A DNA stretch of 4,449 nt. Origin: a virus (Duplodnaviria > Heunggongvirae > Uroviricota > Caudoviricetes). The stretch lies in the IMG/VR virus record IMGVR_UViG_2778261509_000009; one strand, 5' to 3'. Both the position numbers and the translations under genes were made by a program. The notes below the pieces were generated by a model that saw nothing but the letters and a program-made list of their open reading frames with translations, was not told where the DNA came from and ran no database searches. Numbering within the stretch: position 1 is the stretch's first letter; each line of letters opens with the position of its first letter. Positions 150 to 4,449 of the stretch are shown here, piece by piece.

Positions 150-455
150 TCACATCCAACTTTTTTGATAAGCGGAAAGTTCTCCAGCCATTGCATCCTT
201 GTAAAGTTGATGGGCTGGCCATGGATAGTCACTAAAATTTAGACATACTGAGTAAAACCCGTTGAGATTGGCTGGTTTTCCTCTTCTAAGGTGTTCATAA
301 ATGGCTGTTTTACCAGTACCTTTTCTTCCAAGAACCAACCAAGCCCTACTTTCAATAATATCCTTTATCGCCGGTAGCTTAAAAAAATAGGTCTGTAAGT
401 CCCGATCTGTTTCTGCTGAAACTTGAAATTCTGGTAGCCAGTCTCTAATGTCCAC
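150..455 (-). CDS. small Walker-A (P-loop) protein, 101 aa; possibly a truncated or minimal NTPase
   Basis: ORF from the six-frame track. GTG start at 455 preceded by a strong SD (minus strand reads GTAAAGAGGAAAAT-GTG). Translation contains LVLGRKGTGKTAI, which fits the Walker A pattern GxxxxGK[ST]. No clear Walker B follows and the ORF is too short for a complete ATPase domain. Coding sequence is AT-rich by eye compared with the replication genes. Confidence 0.55.
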   Translation of the reverse strand: MDIRDWLPEFQVSAETDRDLQTYFFKLPAIKDIIESRAWLVLGRKGTGKTAIYEHLRRGKPANLNGFYSVCLNFSDYPWPAHQLYKDAMAGELSAYQKSWM

Positions 456-523
456 ATTTTCCTCTTTACATTACATTACCTTTATGTTTTTCCAAAATAA
501 ATCAAAGTCATATGGCGTATCAA

Positions 524-561
524 GTTTTTTTGATTATTTATGAGCTCATACTCAAAAAAAC
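524..561. repeat. imperfect palindrome: 12-bp perfect palindrome TATGAGCTCATA (539-550) flanked by inverted arms GTTTTTTTGA (524-533) and TCAAAAAAAC (552-561)
   Basis: Read directly from the sequence. The outer arms are exact reverse complements but are asymmetrically spaced around the central palindrome. Lies in the AT-rich intergenic region about 70-105 bp upstream (minus-strand sense) of the Walker-A ORF start. Confidence 0.5.
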
Positions 562-770
562 TAAATCTAATTTATCTTACGTTAACTAAAGATTTCATAT
601 GTTAGTATGCTCAAGCAATGCTACTGCTGGAGTCTGATGATATCCGTTATACACTAATTGCCACGCACACAAGCGACATCAGTTCATGGCACAAAGCAGA
701 CAACCACGCTACCTCTACCCTATGCCATGAAAATGTCAATTTACATCTTAACTAATGCACTTTAATCTCG

Positions 771-1193
771 TCACTTAAATAGATACCGAACATTTCCCTG
801 ATAAAACGACAATATGCGCTGCATAACTTCGCTCTTCCGGCACTCGCGACAGATTATGTTTAGACGACTGTCGTAGCGACGTATTTCTCCATCAGGTAGT
901 GACCAGATAAGGTCCGGATCAACCACAGCGGGTTTCTTCACCTTCGCCCTAGAGAGTTTTTTGCGGGCATTTTGCCAGTCCTTTCGTGCCTGTTCAGACG
1001 GGAATAACCCGTAGCCGGAGTTGTATACATAACCACTGGCAACCAGCTCTCTGGCAAGAATGCTCATCAGATATCTTGTCGCACCTGTTTTAGCTTCCAA
1101 CTGTCGTAATGTCTCGCGACCGCTCTGGCGCACAAGTTCGACCACCTGCTCTTTAATTTTTTCCCGCTCTTCCTGTGTAAAAACTTTTGCCAC
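771..1193 (-). CDS. hypothetical 140-aa protein immediately downstream of the replication initiator; N-terminus looks like a winged-helix/HTH-type DNA-binding region (by-eye impression only)
   Basis: ORF from the track. GTG start at 1193 preceded by a near-consensus SD (minus strand reads TAAGGAGGACTT-GTG). Begins 40 nt after the initiator stop, same strand. N-terminal stretch TQEEREKIKEQVVELVRQSGRETLRQLEAKTGATRYLMSILARELVASGYV has the helix-turn-helix look of small regulators. No specific family recognised. Confidence 0.75.
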   Translation of the reverse strand: MAKVFTQEEREKIKEQVVELVRQSGRETLRQLEAKTGATRYLMSILARELVASGYVYNSGYGLFPSEQARKDWQNARKKLSRAKVKKPAVVDPDLIWSLPDGEIRRYDSRLNIICRECRKSEVMQRILSFYQGNVRYLFK

Positions 1194-1233
1194 AAGTCCT
1201 CCTTAAAATTACCTCATGACCTGAAATCAACAC

Positions 1234-2199
1234 TTATCCCCTGAAACCAGGCGGAATTTCTGTATCCGGTTCAGAAATATGATTCACACAACGCTGTACA
1301 GGTGAACGTCCCAAGCGGATGACCAGTTCGTCCCATTTTTCGCGGAGTTTTGACGGGCTCATGATGTTTTTTACCCAGAATGGATCTCGCTGTACCCGAC
1401 CAAACATTTCGCAAATTTGTCTGTGGCTTCTGCCATCCAGCATCCGCATTGTGCGCACGTCATTGGCCCAGGCTGTCCAGTTAGGCTCTTTTGGTCGCAT
1501 GATCTCTCCATCGTCGCTGGCAGCCTGTTCGTAAAGGTTCACGATCCGCCCCCAAATCCACTGCGCACACGCCAAATCCTCCCTGCTACCCCACTGGCGT
1601 TTTTTCGCACTAAACACAACCGCGTCGGGGTTCCGGGTTAAAAAATCCTGTTCAGCGGTCTGCGGGTCCGGTTGCGAAGCTTCCGGACGAAAAGTGTTTT
1701 TATTCTCTGTAGTAATCTCTGTTGTATTCTCTGTAAGATCATCAGGCCATTTTGACCCGATGACATTGGGTCGTTTTGAACCAATGGAGCGTTTCATTTT
1801 GACCTCTTCCATCGTGTCATTTTGACCTGATGGAGCGGCGCATTTTGAACCGATGGATTCGTTCAATTTGCCACCATCTAAAAGCTCGCTCCCATAGTTG
1901 ATCGTGTAGAAATTGGTCATATCGCGCTTTGATTTATTGAGCTTTTCACAACGCAAAAGCCCCAGCGTTTTCAGACTTGCAAACGCGCGCTTTAACGTTG
2001 ACTCTGACCAGAATGGGAACTGTTCCAGCCATTGTTCCGTTGTGTTGTAAATCCAGCGAACACCATCACATTCCATGCCGGAATTGGTATCTCTCAACCA
2101 GTAATGCAACTGCTGCAACACAATGGCTTCATTTAAGCCAATCTTCATCGCAAGCTGTGTGTTTATAACCAGTGGGCGTTCAGCAAAAAGAAGGCTCAT
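1234..2199 (-). CDS. phage replication initiator (functional analogue of lambda O; iteron-binding origin-recognition protein)
   Basis: Long minus-strand ORF. The origin-like repeat array lies inside the coding sequence and encodes a repetitive low-complexity linker (SIGSK..SIGSK..VIGSK, TENTTEITTEN), as in lambda where ori sits within O. N-terminal region (AMKIGLNEAIVLQQLHYWL...WSESTLKRAFASLKTLGLL) resembles winged-helix origin-binding domains. Gene order Cro, cII-position gene, initiator matches lambdoid early operons. The track ORF begins at a TTG (2253); I place the start at the first ATG (2199, MSLLFAERPLV...), which overlaps the upstream gene by 20 nt. The start remains uncertain. Confidence 0.8.
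   Translation of the reverse strand: MSLLFAERPLVINTQLAMKIGLNEAIVLQQLHYWLRDTNSGMECDGVRWIYNTTEQWLEQFPFWSESTLKRAFASLKTLGLLRCEKLNKSKRDMTNFYTINYGSELLDGGKLNESIGSKCAAPSGQNDTMEEVKMKRSIGSKRPNVIGSKWPDDLTENTTEITTENKNTFRPEASQPDPQTAEQDFLTRNPDAVVFSAKKRQWGSREDLACAQWIWGRIVNLYEQAASDDGEIMRPKEPNWTAWANDVRTMRMLDGRSHRQICEMFGRVQRDPFWVKNIMSPSKLREKWDELVIRLGRSPVQRCVNHISEPDTEIPPGFRG
1701..1736. repeat. three tandem 12-bp repeats (TATTCTCTGTAG / TAATCTCTGTTG / TATTCTCTGTAA); candidate AT-rich unwinding element of the origin
   Basis: Read directly. Period is exactly 12 bp. Immediately adjacent to the iteron array on the side that is downstream in the initiator gene's orientation, matching the lambda ori layout of iterons followed by an AT-rich region. 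Confidence 0.6.
1748..1863. repeat. iteron array: five direct repeats of ~23 bp with core CATTTTGA(C/A)C(N)GATGGA; candidate origin of replication
   Basis: Copies begin at 1748, 1772, 1795, 1818 and 1841 (spacings 24, 23, 23, 23). A degenerate sixth copy (CAATTTGCCACC) begins at 1864. The third copy diverges in its 3' half. Located inside the replication initiator coding sequence. Confidence 0.8.
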
Positions 2200-2701
2200 A
2201 ATTCCATCCAGCTTTTTGTTGGTATTGCAGTCGATACGCAAGTTTGAAAGCAATTGCTTTTTCTATAAGTTCGTCAGTTTCACGATCCACTACGGCAGGA
2301 TCAGCAAAAAGCAGTCCGGACTCCACCACATCGCCATATTCTTTGTTTAACCCGGCGATCATGTACGTGATGCTTTTTCCGTCACTAATTTCACGATACA
2401 ACCTGAAATCATTAATCCGGATAGCCTCCATAATTGCAGGCACTAGCGCCGTGAACTTTTCACGCTTATCCCTAGTGTCGATAGCCTTCCAGCGTTCGAA
2501 TATCTTCACTCGATTAACGCCAAGCGCTCGCTGATCAACCGCGCCACCTTCATCTGTGACACGCTGAACATCGATGTTCGGGCGCTCTTTCAAAGCCCAG
2601 AATGCTTCAGTGATTAATATCGTCGCCTGCTCCTGTGTCATTCCTGGTCGACATATCCAGGCATCCAGAGCCTCACGAGCCTGTTCAGGAGTGATTTTCA
2701 T
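2180..2701 (-). CDS. hypothetical early regulatory protein in the cII position (173 aa); possibly YdaT/CII-like, not verified
   Basis: ORF from the track with an ATG start at 2701. The start lies inside the last codons of the Cro-like gene (17-nt overlap; minus strand reads AATGAAAATCACTCCTGA), and the 3' end overlaps the initiator start by 20 nt, consistent with a tightly coupled operon. Functional assignment is by synteny only. Confidence 0.75.
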   Translation of the reverse strand: MKITPEQAREALDAWICRPGMTQEQATILITEAFWALKERPNIDVQRVTDEGGAVDQRALGVNRVKIFERWKAIDTRDKREKFTALVPAIMEAIRINDFRLYREISDGKSITYMIAGLNKEYGDVVESGLLFADPAVVDRETDELIEKAIAFKLAYRLQYQQKAGWNYEPSFC

Positions 2702-2912
2702 TGTTCAACCGCCCCGCCCGCTTCGTCTTACGATATTCGTCATAAACTTTGGGATCATACTGAAGCTCCCCGCCAGATGCCTCCTGTAGACGCATCGCGC
2801 GACCTTCAGGAACCAGTATCCCCCAAGCAGCAACACTTGCCAGTCTCACTCCTGCGGCATTGGCAAGCTTTGTTTTGCTGCCAAAAAAAGTAATTGCGTC
2901 AGCTTTAAGCAT
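2685..2912 (-). CDS. dicC: Cro-like small DNA-binding protein, DicC-type (75 aa)
   Basis: Translation MLKADAITFFGSKTKLANAAGVRLASVAAW...GRAMRLQEASGGELQYDPKVYDEYRKTKRAGRLNNENHS matches my recollection of E. coli Qin DicC and the YdaS/Cro-like family. Divergent from the DicA-like repressor. The track ORF starts at a TTG (2915); the adjacent ATG at 2912 has a consensus SD (minus strand reads AATAGGAGGCTTTG-ATG). Confidence 0.88.
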   Translation of the reverse strand: MLKADAITFFGSKTKLANAAGVRLASVAAWGILVPEGRAMRLQEASGGELQYDPKVYDEYRKTKRAGRLNNENHS

Positions 2913-2925
2913 CAAAGCCTCCTAT

Positions 2926-2943
2926 TGTTAGACTTTTCTAACA
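2926..2943. promoter_or_regulatory. operator O1: palindrome TGTTAGA-cttt-TCTAACA in the dicC/dicA divergent intergenic region
   Basis: Exact 7-bp inverted arms with a 4-bp spacer, read directly. The same palindrome recurs at 3437-3454. Lies immediately upstream of the dicC-like SD and overlaps the candidate -10 of the minus-strand promoter. Confidence 0.65.
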
Positions 2944-2970
2944 TTATTGTGCGCGGGATACCTAAGTCAA
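2943..2970 (-). promoter_or_regulatory. candidate sigma70 promoter for the Cro-like/replication operon: -35 TTGACT (plus-strand 2965-2970), 16-bp spacer, -10 AATAAT (plus-strand 2943-2948)
   Basis: Hexamers read on the minus strand. Predicted transcription start near 2936, giving a leader of about 24 nt to the dicC-like ATG. Operator O1 overlaps the -10 and start site. Not experimentally supported. Confidence 0.4.
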
Positions 2971-2992
2971 GAAAAATTAGAATTACCTAACT

Positions 2993-3400
2993 ATGGATAC
3001 AAGAACCCTAGGCCAGCGAGTTCTGGCGCGACGAAAAGAATTACGCTTAACACAACGAGAAGCTGCGCGCCTCGCTGGGGTTGCTCACGTCACAATTTCA
3101 CAATGGGAAAGAGACGAAACCCAGCCAGTCGGAAAACGATTGTTTGCTTTAGCGGATGCTCTGAAGTGCTCACCTACATGGCTAATGTTTGGTGACGAAG
3201 ACAAGGCACCAGTGCCGGCACAAGAACTTCATGTGGAAACAGAGCTAACTCCCAACCACAAAGAATTGATCGAATTATTCGATGCTCTTCCATCTTCCGA
3301 GCAGGAAGCCTTGCTGTCTGAAATGCGCGCAAGAGTAGAAAACTTCAACAAACTCTTCGAAGAAATGCTTAAAGCGCGTAAAAATAAATCAATAAAATAA
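2993..3400 (+). CDS. dicA: XRE-family HTH repressor, DicA-like (135 aa); prophage immunity repressor
   Basis: ATG start. Classic HTH region LTQREAARLAGVAHVTISQWERDE. Overall sequence (...GKRLFALADALKCSPTWLMFGDEDK...LIELFDALPSSEQEALLSEMRARVENFNKLFEEMLKARK) matches my recollection of E. coli DicA in length and motifs. Divergently arranged with the Cro-like gene. Confidence 0.92.
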   Translation: MDTRTLGQRVLARRKELRLTQREAARLAGVAHVTISQWERDETQPVGKRLFALADALKCSPTWLMFGDEDKAPVPAQELHVETELTPNHKELIELFDALPSSEQEALLSEMRARVENFNKLFEEMLKARKNKSIK

Positions 3401-3432
3401 CATTCTTTTCAAGTGATTAGTTGCGCCCACTC

Positions 3433-3458
3433 TTTTTGTTAGACTAATCTAACAAAAA
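3433..3458. promoter_or_regulatory. operator O2: perfect 11-bp inverted repeat TTTTTGTTAGA-ctaa-TCTAACAAAAA (core TGTTAGA-N4-TCTAACA at 3437-3454)
   Basis: Read directly; arms are exact reverse complements. Same core and spacer length as O1. Sits between the repressor stop and the ydfA-like gene. Confidence 0.7.
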
Positions 3459-3462
3459 ACAC

Positions 3463-3491
3463 TTGCCTCTTATGTTAGGTTATTCTAAATT
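3463..3491 (+). promoter_or_regulatory. candidate promoter of the rightward operon: -35 TTGCCT (3463-3468), 17-bp spacer, -10 TAAATT (3486-3491)
   Basis: Weak hexamers (each about 4/6 to consensus), but flanked by O2 upstream and overlapped by O3, the arrangement expected for a repressor-controlled promoter. Low confidence. Confidence 0.3.
3473..3490. promoter_or_regulatory. operator O3 (degenerate): TGTTAGg-ttat-TCTAAat
   Basis: Same 7-4-7 architecture as O1 and O2 with one mismatch in the left arm and two in the right arm. Centre lies 36 bp from the O2 centre. Confidence 0.5.
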
Positions 3492-3568
3492 ACTTTCCAT
3501 CAAGACACCGCACGGTGTTCTCAGCAAACAGTTCCGCTACCCCGGCGTTAAGGGGAAATGAGGTCAGC

Positions 3569-3721
3569 ATGGATACTATCGATCTTGGCAACAGCGAATC
3601 TCTGGTATGTGGCGTGTTCCCCAACCAGGACGGCACGTTCACCGCGATGACGTATACCAAAAGCAAAACGTTTAAAACCGAATCTGGCGCGCGTTGCTGG
3701 TTAGCCAGAAACACTGACTGA
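3569..3721 (+). CDS. ydfA: YdfA-like small protein (50 aa), first gene of the repressor-controlled rightward operon
   Basis: ATG at 3569 preceded by an SD (GGGGAAATGAGGTCAGC-ATG). Translation MDTIDLGNSESLVCGVFPNQDGTFTAMTYTKSKTFKTESGARCWLARNTD matches my recollection of E. coli Qin YdfA, which follows dicA in Qin. The track ORF begins earlier at 3515, but that extension has no homology support. Confidence 0.8.
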   Translation: MDTIDLGNSESLVCGVFPNQDGTFTAMTYTKSKTFKTESGARCWLARNTD

Positions 3722-4098
3722 TGAGGCTGACGATGGAATTTAAAGATTTACCGTCTGATGTACAGAAAACAGCAGCTCATACATTGCATTCTGTGCTGCG
3801 AGAAATCGGGAAAGATATTGCAAGCGAGCCAGCAAAAGATCTGGCCCGGAAAATCAAGACCGCTTTCGTTGAGCTTTATAATGTTGGCACTGACTCTGAA
3901 ACTGTCGAGACCAAGACCGTAAGTTCACCAATATTCTCACTTGAGCCAGGCGTATTATCAGGTGAAATATGCACCGAGATTTCCAGCGAACTGCTTCCGG
4001 TAATACGAGAAGCAATTTGCCGTCGCGGTTTGGATGGAAGTTACGATCATGACGTCCTGCAAGTTCTCAGGACAATGGTGACTTCACTGGGGATTTGA
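3721..4098 (+). CDS. hypothetical acidic protein (125 aa; 121 aa if started at 3733), unknown function
   Basis: ATG at 3721 overlaps the ydfA-like stop by one base (TGATG), suggesting translational coupling. An alternative ATG at 3733 has a GAGG SD 6 nt upstream. No family recognised. Occupies the position where Qin carries ydfB/ydfC/dicF/dicB. Confidence 0.6.
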   Translation: MRLTMEFKDLPSDVQKTAAHTLHSVLREIGKDIASEPAKDLARKIKTAFVELYNVGTDSETVETKTVSSPIFSLEPGVLSGEICTEISSELLPVIREAICRRGLDGSYDHDVLQVLRTMVTSLGI

Positions 4099-4267
4099 TC
4101 CCTGCGTCCTCTAACCTTTTGATATAGCGGTCCTCCAAGAAGCGGTAAATTTTGTCGAAATCATCTTTCCCCTCTGGTTTATTCAGAGGATTACAGGACC
4201 CGTAAGTAGCGGCATACATTTCAACCGTTTTATCAAAAATATAAGAGACAAATTCTTCTTTAGTCAT
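4067..4267 (-). CDS. hypothetical 66-aa protein, convergent with and overlapping the preceding plus-strand gene
   Basis: Internal ATG at 4267 with a good SD (minus strand reads AAGGAAATCTAT-ATG). Its 3' end overlaps the plus-strand ORF by 32 nt (4067-4098). The frame stays open upstream to the right window edge, so a longer product is possible. No family recognised. Confidence 0.5.
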   Translation of the reverse strand: MTKEEFVSYIFDKTVEMYAATYGSCNPLNKPEGKDDFDKIYRFLEDRYIKRLEDAGIKSPVKSPLS

Positions 4268-4346
4268 ATAGATTTCCTTCTTGGTTATTCGGGATAAGAA
4301 GGATACCACCTCGCCTGACGTGGTTAAAAGCAGGCACACAACACGA

Positions 4347-4408
4347 AAGCGCACGGCGAAGTTCGTCTCACTGTACGGTGTCGTTAAATTTAATTCGACC
4401 GTGCGCTT
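4347..4408. repeat. 10-bp perfect inverted repeat AAGCGCACGG (4347-4356) / CCGTGCGCTT (4399-4408) separated by 42 nt
   Basis: Read directly. Lies upstream (minus-strand sense) of the 66-aa ORF. A small hairpin CCGCG-aaatgg-CGCGG at 4423-4438 is nearby. Function unknown. Confidence 0.45.
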
Positions 4409-4449
4409 CCGGTTGTGGCAACCCGCGAAATGGCGCGGCGGTAAGTATG

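Follow-up and report, generated by a model that had tools for sequence, protein, structure and literature searches.

A portable pair of convergent small genes in the sieB slot of a Qin-type prophage: a candidate exclusion and escape module

The stretch of DNA analyzed here, which we call the window, comprises 4,449 nucleotides (nt) of IMG/VR virus record IMGVR_UViG_2778261509_000009 (Caudoviricetes) and corresponds to the immunity and early region of a lambdoid prophage of the Qin type. Over positions 152-4449 it shares 99.9% identity with E. coli ETEC1738, and from 897 onward 97.6% with BL21(DE3). Just downstream of a ydfA-like gene, two small open reading frames (ORFs) face each other, one of 125 amino acids (aa) on the plus strand (3721..4098) and one of 66 aa on the minus strand (4067..4267), with a 32-nt overlap of their 3' ends. 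These coordinates agree with an earlier description made without database searches (the sequence-only reading). Our analysis finds that both ORFs are real genes and, from comparison with related prophages, that they form one portable module in the position occupied by sieB in other lambdoid phages, where each cargo protein seems to be matched to a domain of its convergent neighbor.

The plus-strand ORF has 125 codons when read from its first ATG, at 3721, which forms a TGATG with the stop codon of the ydfA-like gene and had been taken as a sign of translational coupling. The overlap is indeed present, but the true start is probably ATG 3733, because RefSeq starts the protein there (121 aa, WP_001320327.1), because GAGG at 3723-3726 lies 6 nt upstream, and because the resulting MEFKDLP N-terminus begins nearly all of the 94 clusters of this N-domain family (defined at 50% identity), including those at loci without ydfA upstream. 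The TGATG overlap would then be incidental. The 121-aa protein has three parts (Table 1). Its N-terminal domain is an independent and widespread module, which occurs as many stand-alone proteins of 50-65 aa and also with many other C-termini, and which matches PHROGs 9419, 1363, 2151 and 6937. Across five prophage backbones, the ratio of nonsynonymous to synonymous substitution rates (dN/dS) is 0.09-0.36 in the 52 codons of this domain and 0.5-1.2 in the linker, and the C-terminal domain shows very few changes of any kind. The full-length protein matches PHROG 33007 over its full length, a family with no assigned function (E = 1e-82). A match of the N-terminal domain to archaeal histones (E = 0.045) was faint and was dismissed.

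In the same five backbones, dN/dS lies at 0.1-0.25 for the part of the 66-aa gene outside the overlap, and synonymous change is saturated between this gene and a copy from Cedecea. As had been noted from the sequence, it has a Shine-Dalgarno sequence of its own. AlphaFold2 gives a confident helical hairpin for the protein, with a predicted local distance difference test (pLDDT) score of 85 and helices at residues 3-20 and 31-54. The grand average of hydropathicity is -0.68. Relatives at the protein level reach down to 42-57% identity. Because dN/dS is low, the start and Shine-Dalgarno sequence are conserved, relatives are recognizable at the protein level and the 66-aa fold is confident, we conclude that both ORFs are real genes under purifying selection. 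The 66-aa ORF is short, antisense to an operon and without family annotation, as would be expected of a chance antisense ORF or of a mere non-coding antisense RNA, but the constraint on its codons, the saturated synonymous change, the conserved start signals, the predicted fold and the distant relatives together make such an origin highly improbable.

Table 1. Features of the pair and its surroundings, in window coordinates
Feature	Position	Strand	Remarks
Partner operator palindrome TTGTTAGA-N4-TCTAACA	2925-2943	.	between cro-like and repressor genes
DicA-like repressor gene	2993-3400	+	
Operator-like palindrome TTGTTAGA-N4-TCTAACA	3436..3454	.	downstream of DicA-like repressor gene
Candidate early-left promoter TTGCCT-17 nt-TAAATT	3463..3491	+	sequence reading; overlaps degenerate operator copy
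Degenerate operator copy	3472-3490	.	palindrome scan
ydfA-like gene (DUF1391, 50 aa), first in early-left operon	3569..3721	+	Pfam PF07151, E = 4e-27; RefSeq name 'DUF1391 family protein'
N-terminal domain, residues 1-52, MEFKDLPxDVQ..AF.ELY, two predicted helices	3733..3888	+	pLDDT ~70-76
Linker, predicted disordered	3889..3960	+	pLDDT <50 over residues 52-87
C-terminal domain, ~residues 77-121, with stop codon	3961..4098	+	motif ..EI(A/S)SELLPVIREAI.RRGLDG.YDH.VL.VLRTMVTSLGI; co-travels with 66-aa gene
32-nt overlap of both 3' ends	4067..4098	.	most conserved DNA in cassette, identity 0.95-1.0 across five backbones
66-aa cargo gene, WP_000159335.1	4067..4267	-	ORF list; predicted soluble helical hairpin
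Shine-Dalgarno AAGGAAA of 66-aa gene	4273..4280	-	5-6 nt before ATG; kept in all close relatives
TGgTATCCT extended -10-like motif, candidate cargo promoter	4300..4308	-	32 nt before 66-aa ATG
Conserved hairpin element GCCTG..CAGGC interleaved with CCAC..GTGG	4306..4335	.	comparison with lambda, P22, Rac

Both proteins are mildly acidic (isoelectric points 5.0 and 5.3), as had been remarked of the plus-strand product. Both are called 'hypothetical protein' in RefSeq; one UniRef name is Ybl81. That neither had been recognized holds up in searches against Pfam, NCBIfam, PADLOC and PDB sequences, which gave nothing above noise; the sole profile match of the 66-aa protein is, over its full length, to PHROG 34441, another family with no assigned function (E = 1.5e-50). 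In particular, Pfam showed no similarity of either protein to DicB, Kil or KilR, and Pfam and PADLOC showed none to known toxin or antitoxin families. A zinc-ribbon match of the 66-aa protein was faint and was dismissed. Damaged copies of the 66-aa gene were also seen: its six N-terminal codons are replaced in four loci (L076-L079, Shigella sonnei-type), and only a 15-codon remnant is left in two (L084, L085). In these damaged loci the partner gene or ydfA persists.

The sequence-only reading had placed the pair in the position of the kil/dicB host-takeover genes, and this placement needs correction. In BL21 and ETEC1738, DicF, dicB and ydfD are retained downstream, at a distance given as ~280 nt past the window end; an Rfam search places DicF at window-equivalent 4544-4595 (72.5 bits). 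Similarity to K-12 Qin is lost at ~3712 and regained, at 97% identity, at ~4326. Because similarity breaks over this interval while DicF, dicB and ydfD remain, the alignment indicates that the pair replaces ydfB and ydfC of K-12 Qin, not dicB. The K-12 genes lie in the same interval between ydfA and DicF of a homologous operon, but their proteins are unrelated to those of the pair and both genes are co-directional. Even a modest reading of our results therefore corrects the annotation at this point, as it does for an unannotated cargo ORF in phage SfV described below.

The cassette measures ~625 bp (~3721-4345). In the five backbones compared, identity is 0.75-1.0 across this interval and falls sharply to ~0.2-0.6 on both sides. 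At least five unrelated prophage backbones carry it, in hosts that include Salmonella and Enterobacter, as do metagenome-derived contigs. The backbones have different repressors (helix-turn-helix-only or S24 CI-type) and different downstream genes (KilR/YdaE, YfdP, YdfE, or DicF/dicB). Of 5426 complete E. coli genomes, 392, B/BL21 and C strains among them, contain a 613-bp interval in its entirety, and one sequenced phage, mEp460_ev081 (45.9 kb), has the cassette. Both ORFs are conserved in related prophages, where they occur together in every full-length case examined. By this distribution, the pair is one portable module.

The DNA upstream of the 66-aa gene identifies the site at which this module sits. 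All 66-aa relatives share a block that reads GCCTG, 8-13 nt, CCAC, 1 nt, TCAGGC, 2-4 nt, GGTGGTATCCTT, after which come AAGGAAA and, ~30 nt on, the ATG. The same hairpin (GCCTG..CCAC..CAGGC..GGTGG) precedes sieB in lambda, P22 and Rac, and we found it in 96 deposited phage genomes. Its stems show four independent compensatory variants with both arms changed, so that the inverted repeat is kept, namely GCCCGG/CCGGGC in Rac, CACCTGA/TCAGGTG in L184, ATGCC/GGCAT in L171 and GTGCCGGG/CCCGGCAC in L086. Where sieB occupies the slot, it is convergent with N (lambda), gene 24 (P22) or ydaF, a DUF1391 gene (Rac, in the order racR, ydaG, ydaF and then convergent sieB). Because position and upstream hairpin both match those of sieB, the 66-aa gene is, by this comparison, an alternative cargo of the sieB slot. 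A LexA box in the CTG..CAG part of the element was ruled out by the variable spacing of 13-17 nt. The lambda element (~34,400-34,440) may be the terminator tL1, which neither lambda record annotates and whose coordinates a literature search did not yield.

How many cargos use the slot was addressed by scanning IMG/VR for the 3' half of the block, which yielded at least 120 stretches, with 121 motif occurrences among the matches listed. An ORF of at least 35 aa starts no more than 90 nt from the motif in 111 of these 121 listed occurrences, mostly 27-34 nt after it, and the conserved form of the motif before cargo ORFs is TGnTAT(C/T)CT. The cargo ORFs make up at least 16 unrelated families, whose members are 61-164 aa long and lack any match in Pfam or PADLOC. 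Two of these families are hydrophobic proteins of ~105 aa (105-106 aa) that are probably membrane-bound. The suggestion that the locus is a hotspot is thus well founded: by position and by its sequence marks it is the equivalent of the sieB superinfection-exclusion slot.

Individual loci show further occupants and variants of the slot. In SfV (L293, U82619.2), positions 1578-1823 on the locus plus strand hold an unannotated 81-aa ORF (MTFDEKELDNAINKII..) behind the element and convergent with orf33, and this SfV-type family is the commonest cargo family of the slot. Locus L281 carries the element twice, with motif ends at 1140 and 1766 and so ~630 nt apart. Each copy has a cargo of its own, in one case a 61-aa protein distantly related to the 66-aa protein and in the other a zinc-ribbon protein of 66 aa; these are tandem slots. 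In K-12 Qin (L003), an element variant GGTCTGACTTTTCAGGGAAATATCCTTT follows ydfC at ~5125-5190 on the minus strand without a cargo ORF (the form in L158 is CCCTGACTTTTCAGGGATATATCCTTT). In loci with a 106-aa hydrophobic cargo, longer partner ORFs begin with a head that is matched by K-12 YdfB (42 aa). K-12 Qin may hold a decayed version of the slot. In Rac (L290), the small RNA KilS lies on the early-left strand between sieB and kilR, ~60 nt from the hairpin element (1906-2003; ~2060-2100), and the analogous position in the window leads to DicF, so that small RNAs on the early strand shortly beyond the slot may recur.

The relation between cargo and partner can be followed through loci of increasing distance. 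In every locus examined, full-length relatives of the 66-aa gene face a convergent, overlapping gene that ends in the C-terminal domain, which itself occurs in three architectures. In the window it is fused to the MEFKDLP domain. In L005 and L006 it follows an unrelated N-terminus, and there the cargo is 54-57% identical and the C-terminal domain 36% identical. In L007 and L008 it stands alone (62% identity); the Cedecea copy lies between cro and a cII-like gene. The N-terminal part has been exchanged or lost at least three times while the C-terminal domain stayed with the 66-aa gene. Farther away, the layout is kept in L080-82, where cargo identity is 42-44% and the match of the partner to the C-terminal domain profile is weak (P = 0.03); BLASTP of the L081 partner against the 121-aa protein gave no alignment. 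In L281, hhalign gave P = 1.8e-4 for the cargo and P = 0.0074 for the partner, with shuffled controls at 0.095 or above. The pair thus persists to ~31-44% cargo identity.

Other cargos follow the same rule with other partner tails. Proteins with the same N-terminal domain and different C-termini each face a convergent small ORF of their own in L087, L151 and L154, and in L086 such a protein faces a convergent ORF behind a variant element. The MTFDEKEL.. cargo is matched by an ..EWKWPFSI.. partner, which is either stand-alone or fused to the N-terminal domain, and the MPDKHLITVGEL.. cargo by a ..GFQPPR.L.. partner, which is stand-alone, fused to the N-terminal domain or fused to a ClpX-type zinc finger. 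From these alignments, cargo and partner domain co-vary as cognate pairs, and such pairs seem to be the rule for this slot.

Pure linkage is the null hypothesis for this pattern: unrelated accessory genes would travel together because conserved DNA on either side, encoding the N-domain at one end and forming the hairpin element at the other, anchors recombination. In its favor, the cassette has sharp borders at conserved flanks, lambdoid mosaicism at conserved junctions is well known, and synonymous divergence (dS) of ~0.1 in the C-terminal domain versus 0.35-1.66 in the N-terminal domain fits a recent joint transfer. Linkage alone is nevertheless an unlikely explanation in our view, since the C-terminal domain stayed with the 66-aa gene through repeated swaps and losses of the N-terminal part, the pair persists at such low cargo identity, and the pattern recurs in at least two other cargo families, every cassette type consisting of a partner tail and one convergent ORF.

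Some partner and neighbor genes at these loci deserve mention in their own right. A ClpX-type C4 zinc finger (PF06689; 35.6 and 38.7 bits, cut-off 27) heads partners before the cargo-specific tail in L172, L197, L204 and L248 (75 aa), L178 (120 aa) and L227 (138 aa). It is a third kind of N-terminal partner module, besides the MEFKDLP domain and the YdfB-like head. A CsrA-like ORF (MLILTRK..VGDDIKVT.LG.KGNQVRIGIDAP..; L081 1631-1825, minus strand, and also L080 2690-2875) adjoins the distant pair, between it and xis/int. The partner gene there is separated from the S24 repressor by a 69-aa ORF that resembles YdfC of K-12.

The locus had also been described as repressor-controlled, and the operators agree with this. 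The palindrome was matched four times against 0.01 expected by chance. Since one site lies past the DicA-like repressor gene, ydfA and the 121-aa gene are preceded by a second set of operators that recalls pL of lambda, and this arrangement places both genes under a repressor-controlled early-left promoter. The candidate for that promoter matches the consensus at only 8 of 12 positions, under our scan threshold of 9/12, and its assignment is one that we infer. In K-12, the promoter upstream of ydfA is repressed by DicA/DicC (PMC5069750).

Between the two genes, at the overlapping 3' ends, folding shows a small hairpin, GTCCTG-N8-CAGGAC, at 4054-4073 without a U-tract, and a search for intrinsic terminators on either strand of 3300-4449, this convergent junction included, found none. 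The convergent overlap is kept across cassette types, with lengths of 11-131 nt; partner ORFs with overlaps >200 nt are possibly spurious and were not relied on. Because the overlap is conserved across cassette types, antisense coupling of the expression of the two genes is plausible.

These features could also be read as a regulatory device, in which convergent transcription and hairpins tune read-through into DicF/dicB/ydfD or the balance of lysis and lysogeny, with the proteins playing a minor part. The overlap DNA is almost invariant, both the hairpin element and a second, long hairpin lie between the pair and DicF, and antisense RNAs are already known from this region, namely sas in P22 and OOP in lambda. 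However, both ORFs are under purifying selection at the protein level, many unrelated proteins stand behind the same element, and the cassette also occurs in prophages without DicF/dicB, which makes this explanation quite improbable.

The long hairpin itself spans 4336-4419, with arms CACACAACACGAAAGCGCACGG and CCGTGCGCTTCCGGTTGTGG and a variable loop of ~40 nt. On the minus strand its minimum free energy is -60.9 kcal/mol (z = -5.2); the plus strand gives z = -2.8. K-12 Qin, one Salmonella prophage and one Enterobacter prophage share the arms but differ in the loop. The right cassette border falls inside this hairpin, which lies ~130 nt upstream of DicF and might be a processing site or a barrier. 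Rfam returned only DicF and a sub-threshold STnc100 match, both outside the window, and nothing in 3300-4449.

A precedent for the pair is the occupant of the same slot in P22, where the exclusion protein SieB is accompanied by the antidote Esc and the antisense RNA sas (PMC12197685, PMC7067206). Antisense orientation and independent transcription are described as characteristic of accessory loci (PMC7067206). Like sieB in P22, lambda and Rac, the 66-aa gene comes first among the genes opposing the early-left operon and is convergent with the first gene or genes of that operon. P22 sieB thus provides a precedent for an exclusion protein that is expressed in the lysogen and controlled by a phage-encoded antidote and by antisense RNA.

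By analogy, we hypothesized that the 66-aa cargo acts in the lysogen, that the partner C-terminal domain is its cognate antagonist, as Esc is to SieB, and that convergent transcription switches between the two. We favor this hypothesis while holding it to be somewhat less than probable. From the arrangement of the locus we infer the following timing, interaction and phenotype. In the lysogen, the 66-aa gene would probably be transcribed alone while the DicA-like repressor shuts the early-left operon; independent transcription is suggested because the hairpin element, TGnTATCCT and the Shine-Dalgarno sequence stand at fixed spacing. The small helical-hairpin protein would serve the lysogen as an accessory factor, with superinfection exclusion or abortive infection as its most likely role. 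The partner would be made only once the early-left operon is switched on, by induction or when a like phage enters, and its C-terminal domain would bind and neutralize the cargo, as Esc neutralizes SieB. Because there is no terminator between the two genes, early transcription would also run through the 3' overlap, antisense to the whole cargo gene, and could silence it.

A number of observations weigh against this hypothesis. The 66-aa protein has no sequence similarity to SieB, a membrane protein of ~160-190 aa; it is a third of that size, predicted to be soluble, and has no transmembrane segment. The candidate cargo promoter matches the consensus at only 8/12 positions, and the scan at 9/12 was empty upstream of the gene. 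In P22, only a few bases separate the end of the element from the annotated promoter and RNA start of sieB, and since this mapped promoter lies downstream of the shared element, the -10 assignment in the cargo class is tentative. The leaders after the shared hairpin differ as well: in the cargo class, TGnTATCCT is followed at ~30 nt by an ATG, and in P22 and lambda a distinct leader of 70 nt contains the mapped promoter. PADLOC-DB v2 had no match for the pair or for eight other cargo families, fold searches for both proteins gave no informative match, and a limited literature search (WP_001320327, WP_000159335, ybl80-82) found nothing. The AlphaFold2 model of the 121-aa protein is poor (pLDDT 56), with four weakly defined helices around a disordered middle, and profile matches for the most distant partners are weak. 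Co-variation of adjacent genes between conserved flanks is also expected from pure linkage. Finally, the cassette is carried by E. coli B and C, two strains that are classically permissive to phages, so any exclusion must be narrow in range.

The main rival to our hypothesis reverses the polarity of the pair. The early protein with the C-terminal domain would then be a toxic or host-takeover factor of the Kil/DicB/KilR kind, and the 66-aa protein a constitutively made antidote that protects the lysogen from leaky early transcription, until induction overwhelms it and convergent transcription silences it. Cognate pairing and convergent overlap fit this equally. The operon does hold small toxic proteins, with DicB and YdfD downstream and, in L011, KilR as a further member, and in K-12 the dicBF operon is toxic when induced (PMC5069750). 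Other cargos, however, such as the 105-106-aa hydrophobic and the 150-164-aa proteins, look more like effectors than antidotes, and the occupant of the slot in P22, SieB, is an exclusion effector. In addition, neither protein resembles a known toxin or antitoxin family, and known type II pairs are co-directional. We therefore regard the reversed polarity as a minority possibility.

Comparison with other known systems sets the pair apart in several respects. Like a type II toxin-antitoxin system, it consists of two small, co-varying proteins on mobile elements, but its genes are convergent with overlapping 3' ends instead of forming a co-directional operon. Like many prophage morons, the 66-aa gene is small and antisense to an early operon. 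It may have a promoter of its own, although the candidate matches the consensus weakly, and its G+C content is modestly lower than that of the surroundings (0.39-0.41 versus 0.45-0.53). Unlike such a moron, it has a cognate partner domain in the opposing early gene, lies in a fixed, element-marked slot instead of an arbitrary intergenic site, and has no terminator of its own that we could find in 3300-4449 on either strand. Lambda rexAB and BTP1 bstA are likewise variable accessory loci in the immunity region. However, lambda rexAB is co-directional with cI and lies between cI and the oL operators, whereas the slot described here lies past the early-left promoter and antisense to it; bstA is arranged like rexAB. 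In P22, Esc arises from an internal start, whereas the presumed antidote here is a separate convergent gene.

Extending the exclusion hypothesis from the window to the slot as a whole suggests a broader and more doubtful model. In this model, the sieB slot of enterobacterial lambdoid prophages would be a polymorphic locus of two-protein exclusion/escape pairs, in which a conserved platform drives at least 16 unrelated small effectors in the lysogen, each with a convergent switch and a cognate neutralizing domain on an early-left protein (stand-alone, or fused to the MEFKDLP domain or a ClpX-type zinc finger), and the 66-aa/121-aa pair would be a new exclusion system with self-immunity. The proteins of the pair are uncharacterized, whereas prophage accessory genes in the immunity region are a known kind of locus and the sieB slot is known as well. 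An element that marks a slot with many alternative cargos, and the pairing of each cargo with a cognate convergent partner domain, both seem to be undescribed in the limited literature searched. If the model is true, one easily recognized DNA element marks the site of many uncharacterized small proteins, each with a partner, and the isolated case of SieB/Esc becomes a general design. Those proteins would plausibly be phage-exclusion or host-modulating factors, and the slot a new place to mine for defense and counter-defense. Any effect of the pair would bear on standard hosts for phage work, as it is present in BL21(DE3), REL606-type B strains and E. coli C.

Outside the pair and the early-left operon, the minus strand of the window carries, in order, a DUF977 gene, a replication-type gene, a YdaT-like gene and the Cro-like gene. 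The first 101 codons of a gene for an Sll1717-family P-loop ATPase lie at 455..153 on the minus strand; the gene is full length in ETEC1738 (WP_000354584.1). In the window it is truncated: homology to ETEC1738 ends at 152, where the frame meets a stop, and bases 1-151 are of other origin.

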